Positions 20,733 to 64,000 of a stretch of DNA of 64,000 bases are shown piece after piece (the stretch's first letter is position 1; every line of letters starts with the position of its first letter). A program made the position numbers and the translations under genes. Source of the DNA: Styela clava (lineage: Eukaryota); assembly GCF_964204865.1 (NCBI RefSeq), contig NC_135254.1, positions 15,562,001-15,626,000 on the forward strand, written 5' to 3'. Below the pieces are notes generated by a model. The model saw only the letters and a program-made list of their open reading frames with translations, was not told the origin of the DNA and ran no database searches.

Positions 20733-20931
20733 GGTTCAAGATGGTTGTTATGACTGAATGAATTCGCCTTCTTAGTATTGACAGGAAGTTTTGCTAATAC
20801 ATTAAGTACGATACTGGTACAAATTTATTTTTCAAATATATTTTGTTCGGTCTAATGACGGATTGATGCATTGAAATTATAAATAAAATATTTGTTAAAT
20901 AAACAAAAGGAAACCAGAATAAAGTTAAATA

Positions 20932-30840: not shown

Positions 30841-33800
30841 TTAATCTACATTTCTTTGGGATAGTTTTATATTTATACCATTGCGTGATCTTAATATGAT
30901 ATCGCCCATCAAACGCAATTCTTTAGTCTTGTCACAAGATGTAACTGCATACTTTCGTAGTAAATGAGCCAATACGACTTTTTCTTCCATCAATGCAAAC
31001 CTTTGACCTATGCAATTTCGGGGTCCTGCTGAAAACGGCAAATATGAGTAGGGATGTCGTCCGACGCTGTTTTCAGAACTGAATCGGTCAGGCTCGAAAC
31101 TGAAATAGAAGCAGTTATTCAAAAATACAAAATGAGCTTTTAAAATCAGAGCTGAAAGAATTATCATTTCGTGAATGAATGACTTGAGCCCGAGACTTAA
31201 CACGTCATACACTCGTACTAATTCACAAATCAAACGACCAATTTCATATTAAGTTCCTTATCCGAAGCAAGCGCATTAGGCATCGTAAAACTAAATATTA
31301 CCTCTCGGGATCGGTCCAATAGTTAGGATTCTTATTTACTGCTTGTGTGAACAAGACGCAGTCAGTTCCAGCTGGTATCAAATGTCCATCCATCCTGAAA
31401 TATTGCATTCATAGGATTTATAGTTTGAGACAAAACATGTAAGATAACGACATAGCTATACCGAGCGCGATATCAATGATGATAAAGTTGGTAGGTTGGG
31501 CAGGGCACAAGCTTGAATTTGGAAAAGTCTTCTTATGATGATACACAACCTAAATTTGTTTCGCAGAATTCTACATGAACATTTTTGAAAAAAGGGCCAT
31601 ACCGGTCACACCTACGATTGAACAAATTTCTCTGGGAACTGTCTGTTAACAAAATATTGCTAAAAATAACAGTAGATTGGTCGAAATGAACTTTTAGAAT
31701 TCCATCCATTTTAATATATTATAATAAAGAATTATATCCATTTATGGGTTTGCCCTTGAATTTTCTAGTTTCCTGAAAAAATACCTTTAAAAAGTCGGAA
31801 TTCCCAAATGCCGTACCGTTGGTGATGAACTAGTTTAAGCGTAAAAAATAAATCAATATATCTCAGCCAGACGTTGAATAAAAATTTATAGAGATAATTT
31901 ATCATAAAAACTGGAATATAGGTATCATAGGAATCACTAGCAGGTCATTTCGGCCCATCACTAATTCCAATGTGACCAAAAAATTGAGTTCTGGCTTGTC
32001 TGATTGTGATCATAATTAATAAATAGGGATCATGGACGATCTTACTCGCAATCTTTGCTCGTTATACGTCCAATGATAGGAACAGATGGTAGGATGCGAA
32101 GGCTTTCTTTTACTACCATTTCCAGGTATTCAAGCTTTTTTAGATTTTCCATTGTTATGTACGCAGAATCGGTTTCATTTAATACCCTGTCGAGTTCGTC
32201 ATAAATTTTAGCTTGAACATCCGGATGGGCGCCAATCAAATGCAGAGCCCATGCTAAAGCTGCTGCTGTGGTATCGTGTCCTTGGTAAAAGAAAATATTT
32301 GTTTTTAACTGAGCACAATTCTTATTTTGTTGACGGTTTGCAAACATACTGATTGTACTTCTTTGGCTAATATGAAATCGATTATATATATTGTCGAGTA
32401 TGAGCCAACGACGAGGTGTGGCACAGCATAAATGGATCGTCTTCGACTACACATTAGCTATATATAGCGATGATGTGCTCATTAACTGTTTTATTGCAAT
32501 ATACGCCTACCTTGTCTCTATCGAAACCCTCGTTGTGGGCGGTGCCGTGTGTTGGACCAATTGAAATAAAAGTTTAAAGTTTTTCAAGCCGGCATATTTG
32601 TTAATTACAATAGACTTTACATTAGACTATATACAGTAATATGTTGCGCATACCTTCAAACATAAAAGTATCTACTTCTTCTCGAATATCATCAAATGAA
32701 AGCACCTTTCCATCGTCTGCAACACTGAGAAGCATGTCAAGGAATGCCAAACGTTTGGGCTTCTTTTCCCCTGATTCACTCGCCGAAAATGTTTCCATTT
32801 TTTCTTTGATAACTGATTTCGTAAAACCGTGCAATATGCCAAGACATTTGTAATATTCTTTACCATACTTAGTGTGACGAAAAACCAAATCCGACCAAAT
32901 CCAAGGCGACTTTTGACGTTCTTGTATGATGCTAGATGTTCTAAAAATCATCATCAATAATATATATGATGAAAGCCAATGTAAAATACATATATGTTAT
33001 GAAGAAACATATATATGAACAAGATATATCGGTACTTTCGTAGTGTGTGAACCAAGATGGCGGACACCGGAACGTAGTTTGAGTACCAGGTTAAGGTTAG
33101 GCCATAATTTCAGGTGCTGATACTACGGGAGTCACTTGGCTAGTCCCCGAACTCGTAATAATACTAAAATAAGGAAAATTGGAATAAAATTATGGCCTAA
33201 ACCTGACCTGGTACACGCACTACGTTCCGGTGTCCGCCATCTTGGTTCACATACCCCGGGAGTACGGATATTTCTTATCATCATAACATATTTTTCAAAC
33301 TCTGGTCACAATATATATACTTAGATGCCAATTGGACCAAATTAACATGGCACTATATAGACGTATATATATATATATAATATTGTTTTGTTCTGTTATG
33401 GCATTAGCGAACGTTAGAAACTTGTGAATGTGAAAGTATTCTATAAAAAACTGAACTATGCCATATTACATTACAAAATTTTAAACGAAAGACCTAAACG
33501 TTGAAGTTCAATTAAATAGTCTTTTACCAAGCAAATTTGATTATGATTTTCTTCTACCTATAGATGGCGTTAACGTATTCTGAGTCTTCAGAATCTTGTG
33601 CGTTGATAGATTTCCCCATCGCAGTCTCACAAATGATATCAAGTGTGCAGAGTGTTATAGGTGTACAGACGTTGAATGTTTCTCCGGTTTTCGCAAATTT
33701 CTCAAGGTTAGTGGAAAAAACTTTTGCCTGTTCGTTCATCACCGCAAGGAAGTCGTTGAGAATACTGAATAAAACAAAAAATTGTTAAGCGAGTCGAGTC

Positions 33801-34406
33801 TGGCAAGTTTATTTCAAAGCGACTGCATGGGTCGCGCAAAAAGTAGCCTAGCAAATAATTTGAGCAACATAGGCGCATACAGGTAGATAGTATATTATTA
33901 TATATACCAGTATATCTCTGAAATATGGATAAAGATATTTGCAACTTACTCGGTACTATGAATTTATACCTGAAATGGAAAGTTGGTGTCAATAATCGTC
34001 GTCTAGTCTTCCATTTTTCTCCACTAGCTGTCAGCAGGCCAGTGCCAAGCCAAGAATGCAGGAAGTCGTAGAAGAATGACTTTTTGATGTGATTGGTACT
34101 ATGGAGTAACGTTTCCGCGCTTTTTGGTCCAAGTATAACAATTACAGGTTTCATTCCCATCCAACCTATTCCTACTTCGTCTTCTTGGTTTGGTCTATCT
34201 TTAATCATTTTCATTAGAAACTCATACATTTCATCAGGATCACCTCTCAGTTGCAATGCATGACCAATAATTGGATAAGCCTTCAGTAGTGGCGATGGGA
34301 TGTTTTTGAAAGCGTTCAATTTTTGCACGTAATCTTTGAAGAATGCAAACAGTTTGACGAGTACAACAGCTATAACAAGGCTTACTGTCAGAAAAGCGGC
34401 CTCCAT
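30841..34406 (-). CDS. Cytochrome P450, CYP4 clan (CYP4V-like), gene A, 6 exons, ~505 aa
   Basis: Exons 34406-33970, 33764-33558, 32940-32654, 32280-32046, 31394-31302, 31099-30841 (1518 nt). Motifs [49 protein letters not shown]. Confidence 0.93.
33030..33265. mobile_element. Palindromic MITE in CYP gene A intron 2
   Basis: gtgaaccaagatggcggacaccggaacgtag ... ctacgttccggtgtccgccatcttggttcac; second copy at 47480-47686. Confidence 0.85.
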
Positions 34407-35316
34407 TTTTACAATGCTAGAAGATATTTATATATATATCTATAGTAGAAGTTATAAATGGTTAAATATAACGAAACCTATTACCTAAGCTTTGTGATTG
34501 ACTATATATTAATAGTAGGTTCGGTCACATACAAAATTGATTCGAACATAATACCTCAGAAGAACGCACCGCATTTTCCAGCACCTTATACTAATGGAGC
34601 GATCAACTTTTCTGTCAAACTTCGTACACTATTTGATATTAATCCAATGTTCGATTTTATTACACTCTTCCGTAATCATATATATCAACATACTTTCTAG
34701 AATTAATCTAGATCATAAATAATAGCCTAACAATCTCAGCCTTAACTTTAACACATTTATACTATAGCTGCCCTTGTTCTCAGCTCGAATAGTATATTCA
34801 TATTGTTATGAGCTATACCTTCCCGAAAATACCCAAAACCTTCTCGCACACTGCTATATCAATGCATTAATATTTTAAGATATGCTTGTTGAACTTTGGA
34901 CCGTATTGTTTCAGGGCTCAAAATATACCGAAATTTTTCTTCGGTCTATCATGCCAGAAGGTCGTATTATTATTACCTGTATTTGCCATGATTTCGAGTC
35001 GCATAGTCCGGCCTCAACAGGTATTTGCTGAAGTTTGTTACTAACATTACAACTAGAGCGTTTCTTCTAACGAAACGCTTTTGCTACTAATACGCAGTTA
35101 CCAATTCTGTGTCGATAATAACACATCGAATGAAATAACATTTTGATTTGTCCATTTATTATTTATTGAATAACACAAAATTCGTCGCACTAACAAAGTT
35201 TTGTTCCACTAATTTTTCGATATGTTTTCATTGGTTCTGTTTATTTATAATTAGGTTAGACTAAGTCAAAAGTGATAAATCATCTAATTGGTCTCATAAT
35301 TTGGCATTCATTTTTA

Positions 35317-35666
35317 CCGTATTTCCCGTAAAATAAGACAGGGTTTTATTTCAATTTTCTTTCGAAAAAAAGCGCTAAGGAATATTTCGAGGAGATGTTT
35401 TTTATTTTCATTTATCGTAAACAAAACTACAAAGTAGAAAATTACGAGGTTTTCAAATATACAAAATATGAAAACCGATATCCATTTACTTATAAATAAC
35501 AAGTTTTTATTTCAAAAACGGGTTAACATAGATTATCAATAATTTAGAAGGTATAGGAGAGCTTTTTTTCTACTCGCTTTTAAGGGGAGGATTTATATTA
35601 CAATCATTTTTAAAATTTAGTATAGGTCCTATTTTCAGGCTAGGTCTTATTTTCGAAGAAACACGG
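35317..35666. mobile_element. Tc2/pogo-like MITE with CCG...CGG termini
   Basis: ta-ccgtatttcccgtaaaataagac ... gtcttattttcgaagaaacacgg. Confidence 0.75.
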
Positions 35667-35885
35667 TGAGAAGGTATAAACGAAATAAAGTTCGACACAG
35701 CAACGACGTTGATGGCCGTATGTATGTGTTCTGTTTTTTAACCTTTGGGCTAGGCTAGGGTATTGCATGGATTTGACCAGTGTGCTTGTATTTGAACATT
35801 TTTATCTATGGCATTTATAATTACCAAAAAATCACAGTTATAGCATTTCATTCATAAACTTGATAACTAAACAATCAAAATATTG

Positions 35886-38800
35886 TCACATTTCAACACT
35901 TCTTCTTTTTATTTTTATATTTATCCCATTTCTTGATCTGAGTATGACGTCACCCATGAGTTTTATATCTTCAATTCTATCGCATGATTCAACGGAATAT
36001 TTTTGCAAGAAATGAGCAAGAATTACTTTTTCTTCCATCGTTGCGAACTTTTGTCCGATGCAGTTTCGAGGACCGGCAGAAAACGGTACGTATGCATATG
36101 GATGTCTTCCTACGCTATTCTCAACGGTGAAGCGTTCTGGATCGAATCTGAACAAAAACTAATTTGTCTGCTTTCGGGGGTTACCCACAAAAATGCAAAA
36201 TATATTGAAATACATTTTGTAAAAATCTATCCTCAGGGGTCGAAAACTAAAATATAATATAAAAGTGCGCATGCCGTTTTTTCAGTTTGGTTTGAATAAT
36301 TATGACGCTTGAAAAGATTTCTGGAAATTTATTGCATATATATTGCAAAATGCAAGCTCGCTTAATGACAAAAAGTACTTAGAAAATATTTATACATACG
36401 GAAATACAATACCATAATATACCATTCTTTAGCCTAGTCAGTGCCTGTTGATATAAAATTATTACCGATTTTCCAAGAAAACTGTTCGGAAAACTCAGAT
36501 ATATAAATGTACATATGATTTTCTAGAAAATCAATAGAAGTGAATAAAATAGTATTTCTATTCACCTCAGAGGTTCTGTCCAATATCTTGGATTATTGTT
36601 GACAGCATGTAAAAATATAAGACACTCTGTTCTTTCTGGAATGAAATGCCCATCCACCCTGTGAAGAGAAGAAACAATCTCAAACACATTTCTACAGAAG
36701 AAGCCATTCATATTCGTGAATGCATTTATACATAGCTGTTAGAAATACTGTTAACAAGCACCATTATATATAAATAAAAATAATAATTATATTTGTGTGC
36801 TCTTCTTTTTTTCTAGAATTGGTAATAATAATACCGACATTGGGGATTATGTCTTACGTGCAATCTCGAGTGGTGACTCGTCCGATCATCGGTACCGATG
36901 GCAACAACCGTAGAGCTTCTTTTACTACGAGATCCAAATACTTCAGATTTGCTAAATCGTTCATGGTTACATCTATATCGAGTTTCCCGTAAAAAACTTC
37001 GTCTAATTCTGCATGTATTTTCCTTTGGATTTTTGGATGAAGTCCGATTAAATAAATTGCCCAACTTAATGCAGCTGCAGTAGTGTCATGTCCTTCGAGA
37101 TAAAATGGATACTCAATAAATTAGGTAGAAGTTACCTTATGTAAAAATGAACAAAGAATGAAAACCATAATATATATATTACAAATAACTGGAGGTAAAA
37201 TTTGAAACTCATATAAGCAGAAATAGCAATGAAGAATTATCATGATTTCAAACAAGAACAGAGTACAATTTTCTGCGCTATATTTGTCAAACGCCGCTAC
37301 TACCACTTTAGATATAGTCTCCCAAAATCTTGTCGTCGAGACTGTGAACTGCGTTGGTGTATGATTAAAGGGTGAGCATTATTCTACACCACGATGGTGA
37401 CCTTTTTGGGTCACATTTTGCCTTGAATAATCCCCTTACCTTCAAACATGAAAGTATCCGTTTCTTCCTGAATATCTTTGAATGACAGTGGTGTACCGTC
37501 GTCTGATGCAGTCATGAGAGTATCTAAGAAAGCTAAGCGTTTCTTTTTCTCAAACGTTCCACCAAAATTATCTTTCCTATCTTGAATAACTGATCGTGTA
37601 AACTCATGAACAATACTCAGGCATTTTTCATATTCTTTTCCATCGGCAGTATGGCGATAAATGAAATTGGGCCAGAGCCACGGAGATTTCCCACGATCGA
37701 GTATGAATTCGGTACATCTGCAACAAGTTTATATTAAAATTACTTGATACAGTACTATCTGGAAAATACCAACGGAGTTGATAATTTGTTATGCTCATAG
37801 AGCCAAAAATGTACATATACAGCCAAGTATGCATATACAGCCTGTGACATGCATAAACAACCAACCTAATGTGCTCAGCCATTCAGGTAATGTATATACA
37901 CAGCCAATCGCTTTTATATGCATGTGCTTCCGCGTGTTTGATGTCTAAGCGTTGGATTTTGTGTAAGTTGGCGGAGTTGCATGGAAAAATAAAATTGCAA
38001 CTGGTCCTTTTATCGCAATTAGCACACAATAATTACTTGTATATTGCTTTCACATATTCCGAGTTCTCATTATCCTGTGCGTTGATCGACTTTCCCATTG
38101 CTGTTTCACATATTATGTCCAGCGTGCATAAAGTTACCGGTTTCCAAACGTCAAAAGATTTTTCCGTATTCGAATATGGACTCAATTTCTCCATAAACAC
38201 TTTTGCCTGTTCATTCATTACCTCGAGAAAATCTTTCAAAATGCTGAAAAATGAAGATTTACTATCAAGTTGTATAATATTTTGACTTGTGAAGTTTTTG
38301 CAAAATTATTCTGAATTCCATTGAACAATCACAACTGCTGGGATAACCCGGAGTACGAGTGTCTATTATACGCAATAAGATTAAGGCCGAGCGTGGCATA
38401 TTATGATGAATAAATGATAAAATGATTTACGCCGAAACTATCTTTATTCAAGTGATAGAATAGTATTTTTGAGATATTTACACTTGCTGAAAATTTCCGA
38501 CGGGTTTATTTAGAAAGCTCTAAGGTTCTATGCAATGATTTCATAAAAATTTGACTGATTTTTGAGTTTTCGATTTAAATTTTGGGCATTTGAAGTAAAA
38601 TATAATTTATTACAATCTGTGCATTCAATATATATTGCGTATATCCATCTTCACGAATATGCGTTTAAATTTTTACAAATTGCACCCAGACGGCAAATTT
38701 TTCTTTGAAAAAATTTATCAGCTATCAGCTAGCTATACGGTATGCAGACCTAAAATGAAACGTCGGTGTCAATAATCTTCTTCTTGACTTCCATTTTTCT

Positions 38801-39189
38801 CCAGATGAAGTCAAAAGACCAGTTCCCAACCACGAATGAAGAAAATCATAAAAGAATGTTTTTTCGGTGTGATCAGAGGAATGAAGGATGCTTTCAGCGG
38901 CTTTTGCTCCACCGACAATAAGAACTGGAACTGTTCCGACCCAAGCCAGTCCGACATCACTTGTTTCAGGTGCAGGACTTTCAATCATTAGTTTAAGTAC
39001 GTTTTCGTAGTACTTGTCAGGTGTTCCAGTCAAAATCAAAGCATGTCCCAAGAACGGGATCGCCCTGACTCCCGGGCCTGGCAGTCCCTTGAAGATGTCC
39101 CATTTACGTTTATATTCTTTAAGAAAAAATAGTAGCTTAATTCCTGCCCAAACCGCCGCTAAAGATATGATTGTGAACAAAACTTCCAT
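35886..39189 (-). CDS. Cytochrome P450, CYP4 clan, gene B, 6 exons, ~504 aa
   Basis: Exons 39189-38750, 38243-38037, 37717-37440, 37092-36858, 36658-36566, 36147-35886 (1515 nt). Motifs [35 protein letters not shown]. Confidence 0.93.
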
Positions 39190-40629
39190 GTTTTATTTTC
39201 AAGCGTAATACAGGTTAAAAATACTGCTGTAATAAATAATTCAAATTCGATTAATTTGCTAAACTAAGCAATAAATCATAGGGGGTACACAGCCGTGAAT
39301 TAAAATTTCTTCATCTTCTACAGTTTTCAAGATTAATTAATATCTGGAGTAAAAAATGTTTAAAACTAACAAAACCAAATCAGCGTTCAGGAATTAAGCA
39401 CACCGCGGCAAAATCCTGCTTATACTATACATTTCACTGATCATAACGAAATGGGAGTGCTTATGAAGGACATTTTTTTAACATAGCACTGTGTGAACTC
39501 GCTGTGGTTGAATGATTATCGGAATTCCTATAATAAATCTACCTTCAAGTCAAACAAAAAACAATTACCACAGACTAGCGCAAACAATGAGAGAGGTTGA
39601 TAGCATAAAAGTCGAAATAATACTGTTAACATTTTATGCATAAGTCATCAGGCTAAACCAGTAGTTCCCAGTTATCTTGTCCGCGAGACATGTGTTATTG
39701 TTTTTATTTATTTTATTATTTTGCTGCCAGCGTGACCACTTGGTTACAGAGAATACGAAGTCACATTGCTTAATTAATCGATTTGTCTTCCGTCGTTAAA
39801 TTGGGTGTTGAAAGAAGAAATGCAATTGATTTCGCAGTGGTGTCTTTGCCCAGTAATCACACTTCAGGATCCGATTGTTGAGAAAGGTTTTTAACAATTC
39901 TCACAAGTCTTCAAAATCTGAAAATCTATTTATATGTGTTCAAGTCCGCGTCGCCTCCGTATATAAGTGAATAATGCTGCATTCTATTATTGCAGTATTA
40001 TTGTAATTAGATACCAAAACAACACGACAGCAAATCCAAGCAAAAAAAATGGGATTTTGAGACCTCATACATGTTTTTCCCATACTACTTTCATTCTTTG
40101 TTTTACTTTCGAATTTCGTAGTGAAGAAATCTGTAACGATAATACCGTTAGACTACAAATCAAGAAAAATGAAACGCGTTGTCGAACGCGTCCAAATATA
40201 TTCAAATTTTGGGCAAATATTCACCGTCTATGTGAATGCAAATGCTTATATTTGAGTTCAATAACCCGATATTCTTGCTCTCTTTTTCAAATCTGCAACG
40301 AAACATTAGGTTATAATATTACTCAAACACAGGTGTATTATCTGTTTCATTGATTTCTTATTTTGTTACTAGTCCTCGTCGTCATTTTATTTGATGTTAC
40401 CAGTTCACCAGGGTAGAGAGCTGGGAAACCCCAAGGCTAACAGTTGCATACAACAACGTCACACAACGCACGAAAAACTTGCAGACGATATATATACAAT
40501 TACAATATACATTTCTCATGAAGAATTGAATATAATCCTCTGATTTTTGAAATTATTGTACTTTTCTTATTGCCGGTCGCGATTTTACAAAATTTGGGGT
40601 CGCGCAAAAAAAGACTTTGTGAACCACTG

Positions 40630-47686: not shown

Positions 47687-47811
47687 GATGTCGTATCATT
47701 TTATGGAAAATTTCCAAAATAATTGTTTTTTAAAAACAGCCATAGAAATTGAAATATATGTTGCTTTATTTATCACAGATTTATTCCTAAAAGCCACCGA
47801 TAGTATGTAAG

Positions 47812-50783
47812 ATGGGGGTGGCAGTATACTCTGTATATCTACTTGTAGCATACATTTCATTCCAAATATTTTTTGTTTTAAAAACGTTTGCAAAGAATTG
47901 GATCACTTTCAAAGATGTGCCCGGCCCCCCGCATCGACCATTACCTCTCGTAGGACACTTACTCAGAGAACGCGTAGGAGTAGAGGAATTTTACACACGT
48001 ATCACTACCGGCTTGAATGAAATGGCGATTTCAAGTGAGCGTGAAGTGGCGTGCGTCTTTCTAGGCCCGATACCGGTTTTGTTCATTTGCGGTCCAAATG
48101 CAGCAGAAGTAATTCTCCGGAGCTCCAAACACAACGAAAAAGGCTTCATGTATCATTTTTTAACTGAATGGCTAGGAACGGGTTTGTTGACATCAAAAGG
48201 TGACAAATGGAAGGAAAGGAGGAGATTACTCACGCCGACATTCCATTTCAGGTTTGGAATATTCTGTACCATAGTATATATGTGTACATGTACTACGTCT
48301 ACTGATAACTAATAACTAATGAAACTTTTATTATTTTTTTCACAAGAATAGTCTTGGAACGGTCTTGATAAGCAATGAGATACAATTTGATTTATTATTG
48401 CTTCCTTCTTTAACAAGCAACCAACACTAATAATTTGTTTGTTTATCTGATTTTTGTTTATATATTTGATAATATAGATTTTGATCATTTTCAACCAAAT
48501 TCCCGCATTTTTCAGCATACTCCAAGATTTTCTTGAGGTCATGAACGAACAATCAAGCGTTTTTACAAGAAATTTGGAAAAATTTGCTGAAACTGGAGAA
48601 CGTTTGGATATTTTTAATCCAGTTACGTTGTGCGCACTTGATATCATATGCGAAACAGCAATGGGAAAGAAGATTAATGCCCAGGATAATTCAGAGTCGG
48701 ACTATGTCACTGCTTTGTACACGTAAGTATAGGCGTCGACAAATTGTGCATGGAAAAATATACCATTTCTTATTTTTTGTCATTTAATATGTGTACTACA
48801 AGTTTTATTGTGCCTTCATACATCGCTGTGGATTTTCTCCTCACGTTACTGAGAATCTATATGTTTGCTGCTATATATAAGATGAGGTCCCAAATTTTAT
48901 CATCCTTGACTTGAAAAAATAAACTATAACTGCTCTTTAGGATATCAGAGATGTTATTCAATCGAATACGGTCTCCATGGTTATGGCCGGATTTTACGTT
49001 CTCTCTCACAAGTAGTGGTAAACGGTATTACAAATGCTTGAATACTTTACATGGCTTCACAAAATCTGTCATAAAAGATCGAATGCAAAATTTTAATCTC
49101 GATGAAGATGCAACCTCTGATGTTAAAAAACGACCAGCGTTTCTCGACCTTCTGCTTAGAGTTTCGGAAAACGGAAAAGTACTTTCATTTGAAGATATTC
49201 AAGAAGAAGTGGATACATTTATGTTTGAAGGTTTCGCCTATTGCTATTAATTATATCCATAATCGATTATAAACGATTTGCAGCAGCAGTTATGCACATT
49301 GATTCTTTTATGAACAAAATACCAGTAATACATTATCATGCATGAGTATTTTATTCAAAGCATAGTCAAAAAGTCAAAAAAAATGTGAACAAAATCACTG
49401 AAACAAAAGTAACGAACAACCACTGTAAAAGATTTAAAAGTCCACAAACTCAAAGGAATTCAATTCGAAATGGCGCAAGTTTTCGGAAACAAAATCATGG
49501 CATAAATACCAAATTTATGAAAGGTAACTTCTACAACAAATGGCAGAGAAGTTGTGATCACGGCGTTTTAAGATTTATTGTGGACAGTTTGTACAGTATA
49601 GACGCCACTTGTAATATTGATAGAAATTAGCAATATTTCTTCGTTAGGAAAGATACCGGACTGTATGTATTCGATTGTTGTAAATACTATAATATGACAG
49701 TAAACAACATTTCTACTTGTCGATCCATCCCCTTCGCAGGCCACGACACAACTGCTGCAGCAATGTCATGGGCAATCTTTTTAATTGGATCTCACCCGGA
49801 AGTTCAAGTAAGAATTCAGGAAGAATTGGATGAAGTATTAGGACAAGATATGAACAGAAATATAACCATGGATGATCTTCGAAAGATGGATTATCTGGAA
49901 CTTGTTGTGAAGGAATGTTTGAGGGTTATACCATCTGTTCCACTCATCGGAAGAGTTACAAGCTGTGAATGCGTGTAAGAAATTCTACTTGCACCCTTTC
50001 TCTCCTTTTCTATCTGACGCTCACAAACTTTTTTTCTTACTCCTCTTTCAATTTTCATTCCAAGTCATCTGTCACCATTCAAGAATTATTTTTATATATT
50101 TATTGCGATCTTCTTCATGCGAATAACATACAATATGACATACGTAATCATTCTACTTTTTATGATAAAACAGAATCGATGGACACAAAATACCCGAAGG
50201 CTCGGAATGCTTGCTATTTCCTCAACTTGTGAACAACTTTCCAAAATTTTGGCCGGATGCTGAAAGGTAATGCTTCGATTGGCGTGTTGCTTCATATCAT
50301 TGTTACATGTCGTGTATTACTTAAATTTCATTCAGCCTTTTCCCAATTTTAATCAGTTTTGAGGAAGTAGTTTTTTTCATATTCAGAAATAAGAAATGTC
50401 GTTTGTATGTAATGTCTTAAGGTCGCCCAAGACAAATACGTTCATACCAAATCTATCGCTTCATATCTTTAAAAAAATTTCAACATAGCAAAACTAAATT
50501 GATGAACAATATTTAACTCTTCTCTAGTTTTAACCCGGAAAGATTCACTGTTGAAAATAGTGTTGGAAGACATCCATACGCATATCTTCCATTTTCTGCT
50601 GGTCCTCGAAATTGCATTGGTCAGAGATTTGCGATGATGGAGGAGAAAGTTATGTTGGCACATTTGTTCAGAAAATTTTCTGTCGAAGCGTGCGATAAAC
50701 GTGAAGATATAAAACTACTTGGAGATCTTATTCTACGACCTGGAGACGGTATCAACGTAAAACTGAAGAAAAGATTCGAATAA
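47812..50783 (+). CDS. Cytochrome P450, CYP4 clan, gene C, 6 exons, ~506 aa
   Basis: Exons 47812-48251, 48516-48722, 48941-49230, 49740-49974, 50174-50266, 50528-50783 (1521 nt). Motifs [35 protein letters not shown]. Confidence 0.93.
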
Positions 50784-51603: not shown

Positions 51604-54119
51604 GATTTTACATCGCAAATCTTGGTTTTCTGGGAATACCTTTTGAAGGCTCATATACATTTATGTACAATTGTGAAGCACAATTGTCAGACACTACACT
51701 CAAAATACGATGACTACTACTATTAGAGTTATCCGCTTTTTGAAGTTGGATACAATGATTAAACTCAAATTTATGTAAAATGATAAAACAGTCGGCATTT
51801 CATTTAAAAAAAATATGTTGTTGCAAATCGTTTGTAACAAGAAAACCCATTTTTAATCAAAGTTGTGACCAAAATGCCTATTTTAATAAAAGTTTATTTT
51901 TTTTTATATGAAATAATACACTGTCTATTGTTCCGCTAACACAATGTAACTTCAAATTCAGCCCAGGTGAGAACTAAAATAGAAATATAATTGGCTGTAA
52001 TTATTTTTTTCAAAGAATCAAACTTTTTGAACTACCTCAACTTCAATGTCAACCTTTTACTGAAACTAATTATAAGTCGAAGACAAACTTCCAAGAAATA
52101 TAATTAATACTTTCGCCGTGTAACACATAATAATTATGCCACTTTCAGGTGACTAATCAATTCTACTTTCACACAATAGAAGCATTAAAAGGTATTTTCA
52201 GCAAAACGAGAGAAAATAAATTGCATTTTTTCGTAATCTCTGACTTGCGTTACATGGGAACGAAATCCTACTTGATCCTAGCTTGCATTCATAAATTTAG
52301 GAAGTAAAGTGAAAAAATTTGCATTTGTATTATGTTAATTTTGGCTGTTATTGTTTTTAGTGGAAATTTATAATTTATTCATGGGTTTGTATGTTTCTAC
52401 GAGGTTTGGGCTTTTGTGTATTCTGATGCTTTGCTTGAGTTGAACCAGTATAGTTACATTAAACTGCCTAAATGATTGTCTGTTCAGAAAAAGTTTCCTA
52501 ATTGCACAGAATGTAAGTACTAGTAAAAATATGCATTTCCCGTTTCTTATTTTATGTACTGTTCGCAGTTATTAGTCCTTTTAATTTAATTGCGACGTAC
52601 ATGAAAATCGTACTACCACTCTAAAAATTATTTTATAAAATGAGCAAACAAAAAAAAAAAACTAAGAAAAACAGGATTCAATGGAGTTAGACTTAATTCG
52701 CATCCGATTTTCAAAACCTGATTTAAATTGAGTCACAGAAACTGGCTTACTAGAAACGACACGTGGCTGATACTTGACTATGGGATGATACTTGATGATC
52801 ATTAGTGGCAGAATTAGATATAACAATAATCGATAATAATATGATAAACGATATTCGGAATAATTGGTCTGTCGTGACAATTTGATCTTGAAATAAACAT
52901 ACATAGCCTGATTTACTCCGATAAGTGCATTCATTAAGTATTACATACAATATACGTCAAATCAATTTATCAATCAGGAACCAGAATTAAATACGTTCAT
53001 TGGAGATTCTTAAAAAAACCATTTGCGAATTAAGAAGCTTTAATTAACAATCTTAATACAACTAACTCATTCAATATGATTATGGGTTTAAACAAGTGTT
53101 TTCTAAATACTTACAGTATACTATTAAAAAATTTTGATTAGGGAATTGACGTAAAACCAAATACGTTAAAATGAAATTAATTGAATTAAAACGGATTGAA
53201 CAAAAGGAAACAAACGATCATTATTTTGTTTAAATATAATCAACTTAAATTTATTATTTTCACGATACAATCAAAATTTGAATTTGTAAGAACCAGGTCA
53301 AGCTTCATTCGAAAACTTATTCTTTTTAATCCCATAATCTCAGATGTTCTCAATTAATTGATAGCATTTATCACTTTGAGCAGCTTGAGTAATTCGCCAT
53401 ACCAAAATGGATGACGTATTTCACACTCAATCCCAAGACAAGATTACACGGCAATTAGTAATCCTGACCCGACACAAAACTCGCAGATAAATTTACTGTT
53501 ATCTGCGGTATAAAACTCAATGCATCAAGAGAGCGATGCTCAAATATATGGACACGAAAGCCAAAACGAAGTAATACAGGTATCCAATCTGTCACAGCAG
53601 ACTACATGTATACCGCAGGCTTCACGACTAACGCGAACGTCATTGCACACAAAAAATGAATTCCATAGAGCCCATAAAATTTAAAATAAGTGAAACTAAT
53701 AGTCTTCCATCGAAAAATACTATCTTTATCCACTGAATATTTCAAAGCAGTTAATAAGAAATTCGATTTTCTTTCATAACAATAAGAACAAAAATACCAA
53801 CAACAACATAATAACAAAACGATTCATAGGTCCATTTCGTGTCCAATAATAAATTTCTAATCGTTGTTAAGGGTGACAATATTAAATCGAACAATGGAAG
53901 TAATCACTTTCTAATAAGATTTATCGAAACGTATAATTTGGTTAAAGATCTCTTTAATTTGACTCAATTGACGAATGAAGTTCCACATTATTATTTCTTT
54001 CACGTGCGCGAAATTTTTTATATTTTTTCTCTTCTATATTCCTGAATAGCTTATAAGCACGCGAATTTTACCCGTGAGATTATTTTGAATAACTTCATTG
54101 ACGAAATCATAGAAACAAA

Positions 54120-54638
54120 ATGGCTATTCTGCAGATAGTTGAATTTGAAAGCAAAAATATTGAAAGGAATATTAAAACGTATAGCAAACTGGAAAAAATC
54201 TATCGATTCAGGAACAACACAAAATTACGTAGACAGAAACACTTAACACTGAAAAACTGTACGGTTTCGAAAAAAACTGAACCAACATCAACGCAGAACT
54301 ATAATAAGATTGCAGCATCTAAAAGAAATAAAGGATTTACCAACAATCTTTGTTCAATCGTGGAATCCGATGAAACAGAGGAGTCAACAAATAATACAAC
54401 AAATGCAAGCTTTTGGATTGGAATTCAAAAAGATTTTGTACAAAAACAAACATTTTATAAGAATTTTAAAATGGATTTGGGAAGAAAACTGAACAATTTA
54501 TTGCCTACAATCGACGAGAACGATGAAATAGTCTACAACAAGGATTTAAAAGCTAAGCAGCATCTTTCTTTAAACTGTAAACCAAGAGAACTTTTCCACG
54601 CAAAGCATGAAAATACAACAATCATATCTTGCTGCTGA
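54120..54638 (+). CDS. Orphan protein, 172 aa, single coding exon (family copy 1)
   Basis: ATG-initiated ORF; diverged intact paralog at 58596; aataaa at ~54722; no domain recognised. Confidence 0.7.
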   Translation: MAILQIVEFESKNIERNIKTYSKLEKIYRFRNNTKLRRQKHLTLKNCTVSKKTEPTSTQNYNKIAASKRNKGFTNNLCSIVESDETEESTNNTTNASFWIGIQKDFVQKQTFYKNFKMDLGRKLNNLLPTIDENDEIVYNKDLKAKQHLSLNCKPRELFHAKHENTTIISCC

Positions 54639-55187
54639 TTGTGAAACCATTAGGCTCGTCATTATATTTTTTTCTAGCTGTTATTGAATTATATTTATCG
54701 ACATTGTGTGCAATATTTTTCAAATAAATTTAATTTTTACCATAGGTTACGTTGAATGAAATTTGTAGAGTAGAAAGGTCAAGATTAAATATCTTAAGAG
54801 TAGGGATGGGTAGTGGAAAGTGAACTGAAAATTCGAGATCGATTCTTTCATAAAGAAAACTCACTAGCATATAGACTACTCAAGAGTAAACACTGTTAAC
54901 GCAATGATCGATCTGTCCTGGTTTGATTAGGAAATGAATCTGAACGAATTTTAGAATTCAAATTTTTTTGGGTAGTGACTGATTCAGCCTCGAAGGTTGA
55001 ATTGTTATAACAACCGAGTTGGATGATCTATAAACTCGGACAAATTACGCTGTAACCAAGTAAGATAGTATCGAGCATATATAGGGCTATAGGAATTGGG
55101 CCTAATTGTATGCAAATTTAGTTGTAGGCAAAAAAGTATGAATAGTAACAATCGCGGAGTTACAAGTGACAATTGGTGGGTTGTACC

Positions 55188-55533
55188 CAGTGGTAGGATT
55201 CATGGGGTTCTCTCAAACCCGTTAACAGAATGGCACAATACTTAGCAACCCTGTTTTTGTTTTGTTTCAAACGTTAGACGACCACAGCAAATTGGTAACG
55301 TACCTACGAGACGACTGCAGCGTTGTACTGTATTTGCTGCTTTGCGTAAGTTATGTACTAAATTTATGTAAAGCATGTCATGTTAATGAGCTTATTTGTG
55401 ACATTAAATAGAAATTGTTACGTACAGTTACAGATATATAAATTTGACATAACTTTTCTGAAATGAGTTAAGTGTCGTTAGTTAGTTCGACACAACAGAG
55501 AACCTGTTATTTAAAATGTTGAATCTATCACTG
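55188..55533. mobile_element. hAT-like MITE
   Basis: TIR cagtggtaggattca / tgaatctatcactg; no clear TSD. Confidence 0.6.
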
Positions 55534-56916
55534 TCGTCTGTATTTATATATAGGCTCATCTTAGAGGTGGTAACATAAAACTTAGAACATAGCAACTGAC
55601 GCATTACTTAACGAAACAAGTCGAAACTGCCATAGAAACACCTCGACGTGGCGAATTCCACGAAACAGAAGATTTTGTGACAACCTTTGCTATGCATAAA
55701 TGGAATCTGTCTGATTAGATGGTGGACGTACCAAACTCTTTCCGATAAGAACCAAGCCAAATGCCACGTTTATTATGATATCTACAAATGAGATAGGTAA
55801 ATTCAAACGGTGTAAGTATTTTTAGAATATCAACTAGTATAATATTTTTCGAATTGGAATTTCAAGTATATTTGAAGTCACGCTGTAGAATTATTTATTT
55901 AAGGTGTTTCACCTCTTTCTTCAACGCAAGAGAAATATCTGTCATTTTACTACAAAAAAGCATAAAAGATAATTGCGAATCTATGTCGTTTTAGGTAAAA
56001 AAAAAATTTCCGTTCTAGGTAATTTTACCGATATAAATTTAATAATCTTACTATTCAAAAGCAAAAGTGCTAAGCCTGAGAGAATAAACAAATTGCCAAA
56101 TTGACAAATAAACATCAACCTTATATATTATAAAACATGAACTTAAAGACGAATGTTCTTGCAGCTGGATCATATTTGGAAAGATAAATATAAATATAAT
56201 TGATTGTAATCGTCTTTATCAAAAGCCGGCATCCACGAACTATACGTCAACGTTAACCACAATCATCAATTACTACTATTTCTTGTACAGAACAAATGAT
56301 GCGTCGAATTAAAAGTTATTAGTTCATGAACTTAATAGTAGCATGTAACACTTAAACATTATGTACGCGTAAACAATGAAGATACAAAAGTTCATTTACA
56401 TGGAACAAGTTACAGATGTTAAAGCATGATTGGCGCTACAAAAATAGAAAAAATATGTCTTTGATTCAATGTATTGCTCTTTTATTTATTCTTCGAAGAA
56501 GTTCAATCTTTTTGATCACTTCCGACTTCCTGCTTATTTTGAAGCTCGGGTCAAATTTATGCTTATATGCTGAAACAAGATTCGGTTTTAAATGGAGTTC
56601 ACTGTATAATATATTTCGTGTCGTCTGTCGGTATCGTTGTTATATGGCACACGTTGCGGGTATGCCGCATATGATGTATTTATTATTATAAACACTGATT
56701 TCCAACTTCAGCCTGTAATTAGAAAAAAAATACGGAAATGGTCGGACTGCGATTAAAATTATGAAGGTCTAACGGATCCCAAACAACTATAATTATCACC
56801 GTAGTTCCGTTTTCCTGTTAAATTATGGCTTTGTTAATCAATTGTGAACTAAATAAAATAATAAACACACCGGTAGCTGGAGGAAACGCTTTCGGATAAT
56901 AATAAACAATCTAGCA

Positions 56917-57230
56917 CACTGGTTCTCAACCAGTGGGCCATGGCTCACTGCTCGGCCATAGATTCTTTTCAAGTGGGCCACAAGCCTATTAAAAATTACT
57001 ACGGTTATTGAAAAGTTTGGTTTCATTTGTGTCAGTATAGTCAAATTTTTAGGGTGGTAGCAATGAATGATGCTGCTGCTTTTCATTCTAATTTTAAAAT
57101 GAAAGTATTTATTTTTGCCAAAAAGTCTCGTTTTTCTTGTAGTTTTTTCCTTCCATGAGAAAGATAGTGGGCCACAGAATTTTCATGCAACGAAAGTGGG
57201 CCACGAAAGAAAAAAGGTTGAGAACCACTG
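56917..57230. mobile_element. hAT MITE
   Basis: cactggttctcaacc / ggttgagaaccactg; repeated gtgggcca. Confidence 0.8.
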
Positions 57231-58595
57231 ATAGCACAATTGCTGTCTACATCGCATGGCTGGGTATTTCGAATCGAAAAGTAAATTATTCGAATCAATT
57301 CATACGACAATTTTGAATCGCCGCGATCTTGTCTTTTTTGACCGCCAAAGACGACGAGTTTCTTCATATTTCGCTATTGATGGAACATGTTTCTTACTGT
57401 GTACGACAACTCCGCGAACTAACTGAGTGATGGATTCTGTGTTTTCATTAATTTACCGTAGGAGGCCCGATTGCAATAAAAAAGTCTCATACAGTTACGT
57501 CGTTGTTTTAATTTAAATATCTTCCAAGTACATTCGATTCGAATAAATGTTCGATTTGATTCTGAAATCATTCGAAAAGTGTCCTAATGATTGTAACCCA
57601 GCATGCTTATAATTTTTTTTTTATCCCGAATGGGCTATTTTTTATCGCCAGGTTTTCTCCATCGGAAGTAATTTTGTCGTTCTTGGGGAGAAATAATTTT
57701 GTATTCGATGTGGTATTACTAATATTTAGTACTTTATTATTACTATAATACTTTTTAGTATTACATTTATGCACACATTAAAAGCTATTTGAACTGTACA
57801 AAAGAGAGAGTGCGACTTGCGCATATCACAAGCTAATGGTCCATTGAAGATTGAACAAAAAAAGTAGTTTTAATGCGTAGTGAAGATGGAATAAAAAAAT
57901 CCGAAATACACAAAAGTACGAATTTAACGGAAAGAACCACTCATAACAGAAGCCTACCATTTCAGCAGAGTGTAAAAAGTTGGGTAGACCCCAGCAGTCC
58001 AAGGATATTTCGGTTCTCCATGGCAGTTCCCTACACTTTCTTTAGACTTTAGAGATTTCGCACCGAGTTTTGCTTAAAGAGGTATCAGTCAAAAATAACG
58101 CTATTTTACATGTTAACGTTTGGGAATGAGGGTGAAATGTTTTTTCTTTTTCATGGGGTGAGCTATATTGAGCCTGCTGTCAAAAAGTAATGATGACATC
58201 ATTCAACTGTCAATTCAAAAAATAGTGGTAATTTATCAGTGCTTATGTGATTTTTAAGTCGTGTTTCATGATTGGTTTATACTTAATCAAAATATTTACC
58301 TATTTATTTGTTTGTCTTCACTACAATACGAAGCTGCTATATTTTTAATTATAGTGTTTGGAATCTACAATTAGAAATTAATTGAAAGGAAGTTAAACTC
58401 TTTTAAATAGGCGTACTGAAACTAATAATTTTGTTTAATATTAAGTTTATTTAAGTGGTACGTACTTTGCCTCAGATGTTTCCGTGGGTAGGTTGATTTA
58501 TTACATTTTATTTTCTCTTCGCAGAATATAAGTGCGCGAATGTTGTCCGTGATCTCATTTTACGCAACACTTTGTCACAAGTCGTAGCATAGAAA

Positions 58596-59126
58596 ATGGC
58601 TGTTCTACAAATAATTGAATATTCCAGCGAAGATATTGTCGAGAAAACTAATAAAAATTGCAATAGTAATCGAATTGCGGAAAGAATACATTGCTTTAAC
58701 AAAGAAATCAATTCTGGTCGGAAGCATATCAACGAACTAAAGAATTTCATGGCTGTGGAGAAATTCGAATCGAAGTCATTGGAAAGGCAAAAGCGAGTTT
58801 TTTCAACAAAATCAAAAAGAAAATTCACTAACCTATGCGCAATCAAGGAATCGGAAGAAACAGTGGAAATAATAAACAAGACATCGAATTTATGGATTAA
58901 AATTGAAATGAATCAAAGAAATTTCGCGGAAAGACAACTATTTTCAAAAAATAATAAAACAAATCTGCGACGAAAAATGAACAATATGTTACCGGTAATT
59001 GACGAAAAAGACGAAATAATTTATAATACGGAATTAAACGCAAAACGGTATCGTTCTATAAACTGCAAACCACGAAATCATTTCCGGGAGAAACATGAAT
59101 TTAAATTATTTGTATCTTGCCATTAA
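58596..59126 (+). CDS. Orphan protein, 176 aa, single coding exon (family copy 2)
   Basis: Colinear with 54120-54638 (MAxLQIxE, LCxIxES, W, LxRKxNNxLPxIDE, NCKPR, KHE, SC-x-stop); acceptor ttttctcttcgcag at ~58511-58524; aataaa at ~59188. Confidence 0.72.
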   Translation: MAVLQIIEYSSEDIVEKTNKNCNSNRIAERIHCFNKEINSGRKHINELKNFMAVEKFESKSLERQKRVFSTKSKRKFTNLCAIKESEETVEIINKTSNLWIKIEMNQRNFAERQLFSKNNKTNLRRKMNNMLPVIDEKDEIIYNTELNAKRYRSINCKPRNHFREKHEFKLFVSCH

Positions 59127-61625
59127 TTTTTTTACATTACCGTCGAAATATATTTATAGTATTACCTTAAAGTGCAATATGTATGAAAATAAATTTATTT
59201 ATATAAAATGTTGTTGAATTCTTCAGGAGGTAACAAAGGGGTAGATACGACAACTGAGTGCTTTTTCGAGCCTTGTTTTTCTCAGTCACTTCCGTATAAC
59301 ATAGGGTAATCAACACGATGTCAAAGGGGGAATAGGCAATTGGAATTTTAGCTGCCGTTTAGATATTTCGTTTGCTCAGATAGATTTTCAGACGTAGGAT
59401 AATGAATGGCAAGTGTATGTTGGGCATGCACCATCAGTCGAGTCCTTGAAATATACTTGAGATTACAAACTGAAATAAAATATGTAAATACTGTTTTATC
59501 GATTTTGAAAAAATAAACTGAATAAAATTTTCTATCAAGGCATTTCCAGAATAAACTCGAGGTTTATTTTATCATTTCTTCAAAACCAAATTTCCTGAAC
59601 TAATTATATGGCACTAACTTAAGACGAGTTTGAAACAGCTCAATCTATTTTATTTGATTTAATAGTTTAAATTATATACAACGAAAATTTCAAAGTTTAT
59701 ATATCGTCGAAATGAGTAAATAAAATTTCGACCCAATTTTGAATCCGCAAACCGAAATTTAAAAACAAAGGAGAAGCTGTAGATTGTTAAGAAGAAGCAT
59801 ACCTTACTTATGTTTAAACGTAATTTTTGGGATATTAAGTGGACTACTAACATTGCGCTGGTCGTATTCGTACTCCCCTAATAGCCGGGAGTGGCAGTCC
59901 TAGTGGAATGACAAAACTACATCAACCTGACTTTCACTCATTTACTGAAACTAATCATAAGTCGAAGACAAACTTCCAGGAAATATACTTAATACTTTCG
60001 TCGTGTAACACATAATAATTATGCCACTTTCAGGTGATTATTTAAAGCTACTCTCACACAATATAACTATTAAAAGGTATTTTCAACAAAACGAGAGAAA
60101 TAAAAATATTGCATTCTCTCGTAATTTTTGGCTTGCGTTGCGGGGATAACTCTTGCAAGACACTAGCTTGCATTTCTTTCATAAATTTATCAAGGAAAAC
60201 GAAAAACTTTGCATTTGTATTATGTTAATTTTGGCTGTTATCGTTTTTGGTGGATTTTTATAATTCATCCATGGGGTTTTATGTTCCTACAAGGTTTGGG
60301 CATTGGTGCATTCTCATGCTTTGCCGAAGTTGAACTGGTAGTTACTTAAAATGCTAATTAAATGATTGTCTGTTGAAAAATAGTTTCTTAATTGCACAGA
60401 ATGTAAATAGTAGTGAAAATATGCATTTTCCGTTATTTATTCTATGTGCTGTGTTGCACAGATATTAGTCGTTTAATTTAATTGAGATGTGTATGAAGAC
60501 TTAATCTCCAACTTATTTTTAAAACTCGATTTGAATTGAGTCCCAGAAGCTGACTTTACTGGAAATGACACGGGGCTGATACTTCTCATTGATGGATTTG
60601 TACTTGACTAGTCAAGTGAATCTTTAGTAGCAGAATTTGATATAATAATATTAGATAATAAGATGATAAACGATATACGGCATAATTGGTGTGTCATGAC
60701 AATTTAACTTCAAAATAAACACAGCGAGCCTGATTTTCTCCGATAAATGCATTCATTAAATATTACATACGATAGACGTCAAATCAATTTATCAATTAAG
60801 AACTAGAATTAAATACGTTATTTGGAGATACTTAATAACATTTGCGAATTAAGAAGCTTTAATTAACAATCTTAATACAACTACCGGTAACTCATTCCAT
60901 ATGATTATGGGTTTAAACAAGTGTTTTCTAAATACTTACAGTACTATTAAAATTTTTTGATTAAAGAATTGACGTAATACCAAATACGTTAAAATGAAAT
61001 TAGTTGTATTAAAACGGATTGAACAAAAGGATCTAAATGATCATTATTTTGTTTAAATATAATCAACTCAAATTTATTATTTTCACGATATATTCAAAAT
61101 TGTAAGAAACAGGTCAGGCATTACTTAAAAAATGATTCCCTTTAAGCCCATAATCTCAACTCAATTAATTAATAGCATTTATCACTTTGAGCACTTTGAG
61201 CTACCAAAATTGATGACGTATTTCACACTCAATCCCAGACAAGATTACACGGCAATTATTAACTACTCGGCATAGAACTTGCAAGTAAATGTGCTGTTGT
61301 CTATAAAGTGAAACTCATTGCAATAAGAGAGCGTTGCTCAAATATATGACACATTAGCCAAAACGAAGTAATATAAGGTATACAATCTGTCACTGTATGC
61401 TAGCGCTGTCTTCACAACTAACGCGAATGTCATCGCACACAATAAACGAAAAAACAAATCTCATGGAGCCCATAAAATATTTTGAGGTAAGGAATAGCTT
61501 CTAGCCAAAATTAAATGAAAATGAAATTTCTTCTTTAAATGAAATTTCAAAGCAATTGGTCCCGAAGTTAATAAGAAATGCTAATTTTTCATAAAAATAA
61601 GAACAAAAATACCAACAACAACATA

Positions 61626-61950
61626 ACGGGAATATCGGTCAGTATCCGAAGACTTATCGATCGAAAGTTAGGGGATCCCCAAAACAGCGCTCTTACCTCA
61701 TAGTGACACTCTATGTCCTATCACTAATTAATTAATAAATCGCTAATTATACGACATAATCTGCCCAAAATCAATAGGTCCGAGATATGATGAATGCACA
61801 TGCAAAATCTGGAGCAGATTCAATCCCGCTTTCATGAGATATCGCGTGCATCTAACAGACATACACACAACCAGACAGACAGACAGACAAATACCTATCA
61901 CCATACTCACCGATTAAAATCGATAAGTAACGATTAAAATCGATAAGTAA
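61626..61950 (-). mobile_element. Helentron-like HINE, family B, present only in duplication copy 2
   Basis: Subterminal inverted repeats acttatcgat (61652-61661) / atcgataagt (61919, 61939), (acag)n microsatellite; empty site acata/ataacaaaa at ~53810 in copy 1. Confidence 0.82.
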
Positions 61951-62259
61951 TAACAAAATAATCTATGGGTAAATTTCTAATCGTTGTTAGGGATGTCAAT
62001 ATTAGATCGAACAATGAAAGTGGTCACTTTCTAAGTTTCTAATAAGATTTATCGAAACGTATAATTTGGTTAAAGATCTCTTTAATTTGCCTCAAATGAC
62101 GAATGAAGTTTCACATTATCATTTCTCTCACGTGTGCGAAAATTTTTATATTTTCCTCTTCTATATTCCTGAATATAAGAAGAATATTCCTTATAAGCAC
62201 GATAATTCTACTTATGGCATTATTTTGAATAACTTCATTGGCGAAATCATAGGAACAAA

Positions 62260-62776
62260 ATGGCTATTCTGCAGAAGTTGAATTTGAAAGCAAAAATGAT
62301 GAAACAAATGATGAAACAAATAGAAAACTAGAAAAAATCTATCGATTCAGGAACAACACAAAATTACGTAGACAGAAGGACTTAACACTGAAAAACTGTA
62401 CGGTTGCGAAAAAACTGAGCCAACATCAATAAATTACTAAAATATAATTGCTGCATCTAGAATAAAGAATGGATTTACCAACAATCTGTGTTCAATTGTG
62501 GAATCCGATAAAACAGAAGAATCAACAAATCAAACAACATATGGAAGCTTTTGGATTGAAATTCAAAAAGATTTTGTACAAAAACAAACATTTTGGAAAA
62601 ATTTTAGAATAGATTTGCGAAGAAAAATGAACAATTTATTGCCTACAAATGACGAAAAAAATGAAATAATCTACAACAAGTGATTAAAAGCTAAGCAGCA
62701 TCGTTCTCTCAACTGTAAACCAAGACATCTTTTCCACGCAAAACATGGAACTGCAACAGTCATATCTTGCTGCTGA
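62260..62776 (+). pseudogene. Disrupted orphan-family copy 3
   Basis: Close paralog of 54120-54638 with a 1-bp deletion after codon 5 (cagatagtt to cagaagtt), another indel near 62410 and a premature TGA at 62681. Confidence 0.82.
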
Positions 62777-63589
62777 TTGTGAAACCATTCAGCTCGTCAT
62801 TATATTATTTAAAACTTTTATTGAAATATATTTATTAACATTGCGTGCAAGATTTTTTAAATAAAGTTAATTTGCTATTAATCATATTTTACGTTAAATG
62901 ATTTTGTAGAGTAGAAAGGTCAAGATTACATTTCTTAAGAGTGGGATTGGGTGGCGAAAAGTGAGCTGAAAAATTTACCGACATCGATTCTTTGATACAG
63001 AAAACTCACTAGTTCATACTCAAAAGTAAACAATGTTAACGCAATGATTGATCTGTCTTCGTTTGGTTAATGTAGTGTAGGCCTGTAGGGCGTCGTGACT
63101 AAAAATTGGTCTGAACAAATGTTTTTTTTGGTTGTGACTCATTCAGACTCGAAGATTAAATTGTTACGATTTCCCACTTTTGCGTAAAGCTTAGCTACAT
63201 TTTATAAGCAGATTATGAATATGTATTGGTGAAGTTGACGCAAATATTCAGCTTAAAACCATGAGGTTTGTAACCACAACCTAAGATATTCTTATAAGCA
63301 GAAGGCATCTTGAAACGCTATCGCGCAGATGTACACAGAGCGTGCGACACCTGTGGTGATACAACGAGTTTTCGATGAAGTGGGATCTGAGGTATAACCA
63401 CCATTGACAGTTCCAATTAAACTTGTATATGTGTGAAATCACACTCAGCCAAGCTAAACGTAGGATTGTTGATATCTTTGGTTAAATATGGTATTCTTTA
63501 CATGAGTGGCTTGGTAATGGAAGGATTTCATGATGTGAAATTATTTCAGAGGAGCTCCGACGAACCCCTGATAAAGCTCTACCGAACCC

Positions 63590-63925
63590 AGGGGCAAAAG
63601 TACGTGGGTGCAAATGTACGCAGGTGCAAATGTATTTTCTCGGCTGCAAATGTACGCGTTGCAAATGTCCGCGAGTGTCAATTTCCGTGGGTGAAAATTT
63701 AAGGGGGTGCAAATATACATGGGTGCAAATATCTATAGGTGCAAATGTTCATGGGTGCAAATGTTCATCTGCGCAATCTGTGTTGGTGCTAAAATCTGCT
63801 GGTGCAAATGTATCGGTGCAATTGTTCATGGGTGCAAATGTTCGTGGGTGCAAAAATATACAGATGCAATTATCCTGGGTGCAAATGTACGTGTACAATT
63901 GTACGTTGGTGCAAATATATTGAAA
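63590..63925. repeat. Array of ~16-17-bp ggtgcaaatgt units, probably MITE-internal
   Basis: More than a dozen (gg)tgcaaat occurrences; absent from duplication copy 1. Confidence 0.8.
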
Positions 63926-64000
63926 CCAGGAAAAGTATTTGTCATTTTACTGCAAAAAAAAAAAAAAAAGATTATTGCGAATATATGTCGTTTGAATATA

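Follow-up and report, generated by a model that had tools for sequence, protein, structure and literature searches.

A family of small basic proteins, each with two LxxIxE motifs of the kind that dock to the B56 subunit of the phosphatase PP2A, is encoded in the genome of the tunicate Styela clava, and two of its genes together with a pseudogene lie within the stretch of DNA analysed here (the window: 64,000 nucleotides (nt) of contig NC_135254.1, positions 15,562,001 to 15,626,000 of the forward strand, assembly GCF_964204865.1). The family is under purifying selection and, as far as can be judged from sequence, the anchors of the two motifs stand out as its chief invariant feature and persist in a clade that is only 23-29% identical to that of the window copies. 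The family has the sequence-level features of PP2A-B56 LxxIxE ligands, membership proper being a matter of binding, and docking to B56 through the two motifs appears probable when the decoy and adaptor readings weighed below are taken together.

The initial annotation of the window had described two intact paralogs and a pseudogene that has lost one motif, and had placed the motifs at amino acids (aa) 77 and 128 of copy 1 and at aa 80 and 132 of copy 2. All of this was borne out, the two intact proteins being 42% identical and motif 2 of the pseudogene reading LPTNDE. The features are as follows, omega denoting dN/dS, the ratio of nonsynonymous to synonymous substitution rates.

54120 to 54638, + strand: copy 1, an intact uninterrupted open reading frame (ORF) of 172 aa
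54126 to 54143, + strand: N-terminal conserved block of copy 1, ILQIVE (omega of about 0.1 for aa 1-8)
54348 to 54365, + strand: motif 1 of copy 1, LCSIVE, with acidic residues after it and a basic patch before it
54501 to 54518, + strand: motif 2 of copy 1, LPTIDE
58596 to 59126, + strand: copy 2, an intact uninterrupted ORF of 176 aa
58833 to 58850, + strand: motif 1 of copy 2, LCAIKE
58989 to 59006, + strand: motif 2 of copy 2, LPVIDE
62260 to 62776, + strand: pseudogene, a duplicate of copy 1 with two 1-nt deletions and in-frame stops at 62438 and 62681
52030 to 63993, + strand: two-gene unit of about 8 kb, duplicated in tandem (blastn self-matches, 52030-55991 matching 59915-63993)

The duplication is laid out as copy 1 plus copy 2, followed by the pseudogene plus a fourth gene, L004, which is situated just past the window end at C5:15628479.

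Searches of the species' own genome (377 Mb) with single proteins yielded 10, 32, 9 and 36 matches. ORFs were taken from 23 loci, of which three (L014, L026 and L036) were broken and were dropped, and further broken copies on the opposite strand in C16 were left out. All family counts are lower bounds. The family comprises at least 20 intact uninterrupted ORFs of 165-177 aa, each starting with MA[IV]L, which are found in four clusters (C5 at 15.6 Mb, C5 at 18.2 Mb, C8 at 19.5 Mb and C16 at 19.85-19.97 Mb). The five C5 copies form one clade and the 15 C8/C16 copies the other, and it is between these two that identity falls to the low values given above. In a profile comparison the two clades were matched by hhalign at 92.9% (E 3.8e-7), five of six C8/C16 proteins scored above all 6000 shuffles with a hidden Markov model (HMM) built from C5 proteins only, and both clades are alike in length, start, motif spacing and flanking elements, which together give modest support to a common origin. 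One copy is represented in RefSeq as XP_077975088.1 (uncharacterized LOC144430838, Styela clava). Weak genome matches on C1, C14, C17 and C19 (E 1.7-3.7) were left out of the count; those on C1 and C14, considered as possible members, were rejected after scoring poorly against the family profiles. In the C16 cluster (L015-L035), the + strand carries 12 intact family genes and the - strand broken copies that alternate with them, an arrangement that recurs in units of about 17-20 kb.

Thirteen alignment columns are invariant in the 20 proteins (M1, A2, L4, I6, L77, E82, E85, E88, N126, L128, I131, E133 and C153), and the eight from L77 to E133 lie in or beside the two motifs. Both motifs have L at P1 and E at P6 in every copy; at P4, I is found in all copies of motif 2 and in 19 of 20 copies of motif 1, where residue 80 is V in the remaining protein, and P3 and P5 are variable, with 3-6 different residues. 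Strict LxxIxE therefore occurs twice in 19 of the 20 intact copies, and LxxIxE plus LxxVxE in the twentieth, at a motif-to-motif spacing of 51-54 residues. The motifs were expected to be conserved in further homologs, and they are: of the 71 columns common to copies 1 and 2, 14 show no change in the 17 copies that belong to other clusters than the window's, and these 14 include all six anchors (hypergeometric P 2e-5). When evolution was simulated under a uniform codon model, an L, I or E shared by copies 1 and 2 stayed invariant with a probability of 0.093, 0.015 and 0.008, respectively. Shuffling of six proteins (20,000 times each) produced two strict LxxIxE motifs in 0.16-0.75% of shuffles, and the excess was weaker with the broad pattern [LMFI]xx[ILV]xE (P 0.007-0.20).

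The residues around the anchors were compared with published determinants of B56 binding. The B56 pattern has L at P1, I at P4 and E at P6 with acidic residues preferred at P7-P9 (PMC10970375), and a subset of B56 ligands has a basic patch no more than about 15 aa before LxxIxE (PMC7108865). In motif 1, P9 is E in 20/20, P7 is D or E in 15/20 and P2 is S in 12/20 copies, and the preceding 16 aa contain 4-7 K/R and 0-1 D/E. In motif 2, P7 is E in 15/20 copies, and the other five have D or E at P8 and E at P9. The acidic P7-P9, the Ser at P2 of motif 1 and the K/R before motif 1 agree with the published determinants (PMC10970375, PMC7108865). A putative partner is also encoded in the genome, which contains three B56 loci; the equivalent of R222, a pocket residue of B56-alpha (PMC8256288), is retained in the two B56 genes that were read, the C1 gene and one C4 gene. 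The protein P0005 (L039/L040/L045/L046/L048, C1:9.98-9.99 Mb) is a diverged B56 paralog encoded by few long exons, with a partial second copy adjoining and the pocket arginine retained; it is 44-50% identical to B56 of other animals and 80% to P0006. It is a speculation that this lineage-specific B56 could be the partner of the family.

It is also conceivable, albeit quite unlikely, that the L-x-x-I-x-E-x-x-E blocks bind another ligand or have a structural role, the match to the B56 motif being a coincidence. The motif is short, copy 2 does not exceed chance with the broad pattern (P 0.20), and E85, E88 and N126 are invariant beyond the need of the strict motif. However, such a coincidence would have to account for the P1/P4/P6 pattern occurring twice with variable P3 and P5, acids downstream and a basic patch upstream, and the hydrophobic P5 residues that a reading of motif 2 as a SUMO-interacting motif would call for give way to D, E, K or P in 8/20 copies.

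The coding nature of the ORFs is clear from their substitutions. Pairwise dN/dS was 0.29-0.82 in 17 of the 18 pairs with estimable dS, and a codon model on all 20 copies gave an omega of 0.448, with twice the log-likelihood difference (2dL) from omega 1 being about 70; a value near 1 would have been expected in the absence of function. Within clades, omega was 0.39, 0.53 and 0.46, and 0.64 for the 11 young C16 copies, and thus below 1 throughout. By region, it was about 0.1 for aa 1-8, about 0.3 for the motifs, about 0.3 for the C-terminal block and about 0.6 for the linkers. These values argue against a view of the ORFs as repeats without function, or as cargo of transposons or viruses multiplied by duplication, a view that could draw on the many broken copies, the tandem arrays and the few annotated copies. 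Further points against it are that intact ORFs persist at 20 of the 23 loci examined, over divergences reaching dS above 1, that viral and metagenome contigs yielded no family relative (0/596 and 0/191 pattern matches), and that no transposase ORF is attached to family genes in 190 kb of flanks. The ORFs were without match to transposable element or viral proteins in Pfam, the HMM scan described below, the flanks and the viral and metagenome contigs. The non-functional or mobile-element reading is largely refuted and is considered very improbable. Long ORFs within the C16 cluster (L064:2387-8329, C16:19.957-19.963 Mb), which resemble those of a BEL/Pao-type long terminal repeat (LTR) retrotransposon, are unlinked to family genes.

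Searches for relatives outside the species agreed with the statement of the initial annotation that no domain is recognised, Pfam returning no family for two proteins at E values up to 10. In a word-indexed protein search, none of 96 candidates was related to copy 1, and a 21-sequence profile found a single related entry among 2282, the Styela protein itself. When 1.84 billion representatives were scanned in full with an HMM profile of 7 sequences, two matches resulted, the Styela protein and a repeat protein of 1430 aa, P0002. The latter was rejected as a homolog, the match being at the level of the motif (motif 1 alone, E 2.7e-4). P0002 has several repeats of the NLCSIEDE type, each an LxxIxE match, and, unrelated as it looks, is an independent multi-motif candidate. 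The ESM Atlas held no usable match for two proteins, which bears on neither novelty nor absence. The proposal of a lineage-specific family is therefore upheld insofar as no homolog outside Styela clava was found in Pfam, protein, viral and metagenome searches; restriction to the species is unproven, the genomes of other tunicates lying outside the DNA search. No description of this family, nor of a natural small multi-LxxIxE family, was found in a literature search that left most subscription papers and supplements outside.

Both clades share elements on either side of the ORF.

54052 to 54057, + strand: TATA-like box TATAAG of copy 1, 68 nt before the ATG, a putative promoter element
58527 to 58532, + strand: TATA-like box TATAAG of copy 2, 69 nt before the ATG
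54708 to 54715, + strand: 8-mer miR-92 seed match of copy 1, 14 nt before AATAAA
59172 to 59179, + strand: 8-mer miR-92 seed match of copy 2, with AATAAA at 59188

In both clades the ATG is preceded, at a distance of 61-78 nt, by a TATA-like box that may act in the promoter; the 15 C8/C16 copies all have it within this range. A splice or trans-splice acceptor directly upstream of copy 2 is possible. By commonly known patterns, the 400 nt upstream hold no cAMP response element (CRE), CArG, NF-kB or triple heat-shock element that the copies share. All six subgroups have two 6-mers in common in the 110 nt past the stop, TGCAAT and a T-rich one. A miR-92 seed match is found in 19 of 20 3' flanks (five copies with the 8-mer GTGCAATA, 13 with a 7-mer-A1 and one with a 6-mer), against a background of 0.2-5.5% per flank; one flank has none, and the window's pseudogene has lost it. 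The seed agrees with the morpholino sequence in 10.1101/680991, and three of the four Rfam mir-92 matches in the genome, all of them below the gathering score, are hairpins with that seed. In Ciona savignyi, miR-92 is expressed across stages and tissues (PMC8001136). By the criteria of sequence and of miR-92 genes, the 3' element is thus a predicted miR-92 target site. The mir-92-like hairpins are located at L069:1501-2290 (C8:12.83 Mb) and L070/L071 (C17:12.23 Mb), the C17 pair being 350 nt apart, and seed-bearing stretches beside the C8 hairpin together with the C17 pair suggest two small mir-92 clusters.

The tentatively preferred reading, somewhat short of an even chance, is that the proteins dock in the B56 pocket with their two LxxIxE motifs and act as short-lived, dose-dependent competitors of B56 substrates. 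A disordered protein would bind PP2A B56 through both motifs, which might occupy two holoenzymes or return to a single one; competing substrates, other LxxIxE proteins for example, would be displaced from B56, and phosphorylation would rise in a pulse. The dose might be set by gene copy number, the pulse might be cut short by miR-92, and the conserved N- and C-terminal blocks might set the location or bind a second partner. The predicted properties of the proteins are compatible with such a role, since they are basic (isoelectric point 9.5-9.9), without hydrophobic segment, and on the disordered side of the charge-hydropathy plot in 6/6 cases. AlphaFold models of one protein per clade had a predicted local distance difference test score (pLDDT) of 48 in both cases, shallow alignments giving low pLDDT regardless; in them the motifs lie at the edge of a helix or away from any helix, and they were too poor for a fold search.

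It should be noted that several observations weigh against this competitor reading. Decoy and adaptor alike fit all results, and the N-terminal 8 aa and the C-terminal block, as constrained as the motifs, are not needed by a pure decoy. As P2 of motif 2 is Pro in 19/20 copies, not every spacer is free, and as the proteins overall consist of 15-21% K/R, the 3-5 K/R in the 16 aa before motif 2 are barely above background. Because the motifs themselves anchor the alignment over the deep split, the link between the clades is modest and ancestry is shared, the P values given above are on the optimistic side and the copies cannot count as independent. The young C16 copies are weakly constrained (2dL 4.9), and the protein collection lacks eight of nine family proteins looked up. 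Finally, two of seven control 3' flanks of other genes contain TGCAAT fused to AATAAA, and a role of TGCAAT in 3'-end formation is therefore possible; TGCAAT and AATAAA show no excess of pairing in 163 kb of background (6 cases, against 7.9 and 5.3 expected).

The constraint on the terminal blocks speaks in favour of an adaptor, in which the same motifs would bind B56 while the MA[IV]LxI[VI]E block and the Cys-containing C-terminal block hold a substrate, a SUMOylated partner or a membrane. The initial annotation had taken the N-terminal ILQIVE/VLQIIE for a weaker B56 motif, but the broad consensus is present in 14/20 copies, and the invariant M1, A2, L4 and I6 differ from what a B56 motif predicts; the block is probably a different site. 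With its hydrophobic and then acidic residues, it resembles a SUMO-interacting motif. At the other end, C153 is found in 20/20 proteins, a Cys at the second-last position in 5/5 C5 copies, and a weak helix lies between the motifs in both AlphaFold runs. However, the C-termini are unlike between the clades (CC, CH or CY in one clade of five, RSR or RCR in the other of 15), one holoenzyme could be recruited without two pocket-binding motifs, and the proteins are without recognisable binding domain. An adaptor is considered rather unlikely. Lipidation, which requires a terminal CaaX or a Rab-type CC, had been suggested from the SCC end of copy 1, copy 2 ending in SCH. Both ends were confirmed, but CC is the end of 3/20 copies, CH or CY that of 2/20 and RSR or RCR that of 15/20, and a terminal CaaX was absent from all 20; lipidation is thus not a feature of the family.

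The family can be compared with several known systems. The B56 ligands BubR1, KIF4A, RepoMan and RacGAP1/Cyk4 (PMC10970375, PMC7108865) have the same L at P1, I at P4, E at P6 and acidic P7-P9, and share with many family copies the Ser at P2 and with the family the basic patch about 15 aa before motif 1. In contrast to these large proteins with a function of their own, the Styela proteins have about 170 aa and at least 20 gene copies, the two motifs make up most of their conservation, and they are predicted ligands. Engineered chains of one, two or four LxxIxE motifs inhibit B56 with a potency that rises with copy number (PMC7327492), and the 2x and 4x versions likewise carry several motifs on a spacer without catalytic domain; they are synthetic, whereas the Styela proteins add conserved N- and C-terminal blocks. 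CIP2A and PME-1 are endogenous PP2A-B56 inhibitors with an LxxIxE-like motif (PMC10970375, PMC9974998), but these are large folded proteins with additional mechanisms and wide conservation, and the Styela family is small and orphan. By the tests run, this family is not an IER, CaaX or transposon protein; kinship with the IER family was not found by Pfam, and no IER protein was among the two matches of the full HMM scan or the one match of the 21-sequence profile. IER3 (IEX-1) is itself small and encoded by a single-copy gene. As a stress-related, reported B56 binder that sustains ERK phosphorylation (PMC4599215), it offers a functional precedent for a B56 dampener.

Orphan gene families seldom yield a testable function, and here selection kept little beyond two docking motifs and one 3' element. 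If B56 is bound, a young multi-copy family would have connected itself to an ancient phosphatase through nothing but short motifs, and nature would offer a small multivalent regulator of B56. A more specific proposal, which is doubtful, is that the 20-copy Styela family represents natural bivalent PP2A-B56 inhibitors without traceable ancestor, matching the engineered multi-LxxIxE inhibitor; a TATA-driven burst of production would be ended by miR-92, so that a timed pulse of phosphorylation might result, for example, in gametes, early embryos or under stress.

Transcription of the family is weakly hinted at by contigs over copy 1 and by the one copy that is a RefSeq protein. The contigs, from three runs of one study that were guessed to be RNA, span 54358-54661 at a depth of 2-5, and the two longest (260 and 200 nt) have two differences each. 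For the copy 1 region, to which this inspection was confined, no contig of these runs crossed the 5' half of the gene or unique upstream DNA, an absence that speaks neither for nor against transcription. Upstream of copy 1, at 53526-53850 of the window, lies a high-copy short repeat with very high contig depth in four of four sequencing runs.

The remainder of the window contains several other features.

1 to 3934: tandemly repeated unit of about 195 nt, with 80-92% likeness between copies
6143 to 8077, + strand: uninterrupted 644-codon frame, opposite and between exons of a - strand gene, resembling a nucleostemin/GNL3-type GTPase
19743 to 20735 and 21793 to 22785, - strand: two tandem C2H2 zinc-finger genes, their DNA 89% alike
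30841 to 39192, - strand, and 47791 to 50774, + strand: cluster of at least three cytochrome P450 genes, which we take to be CYP4-like

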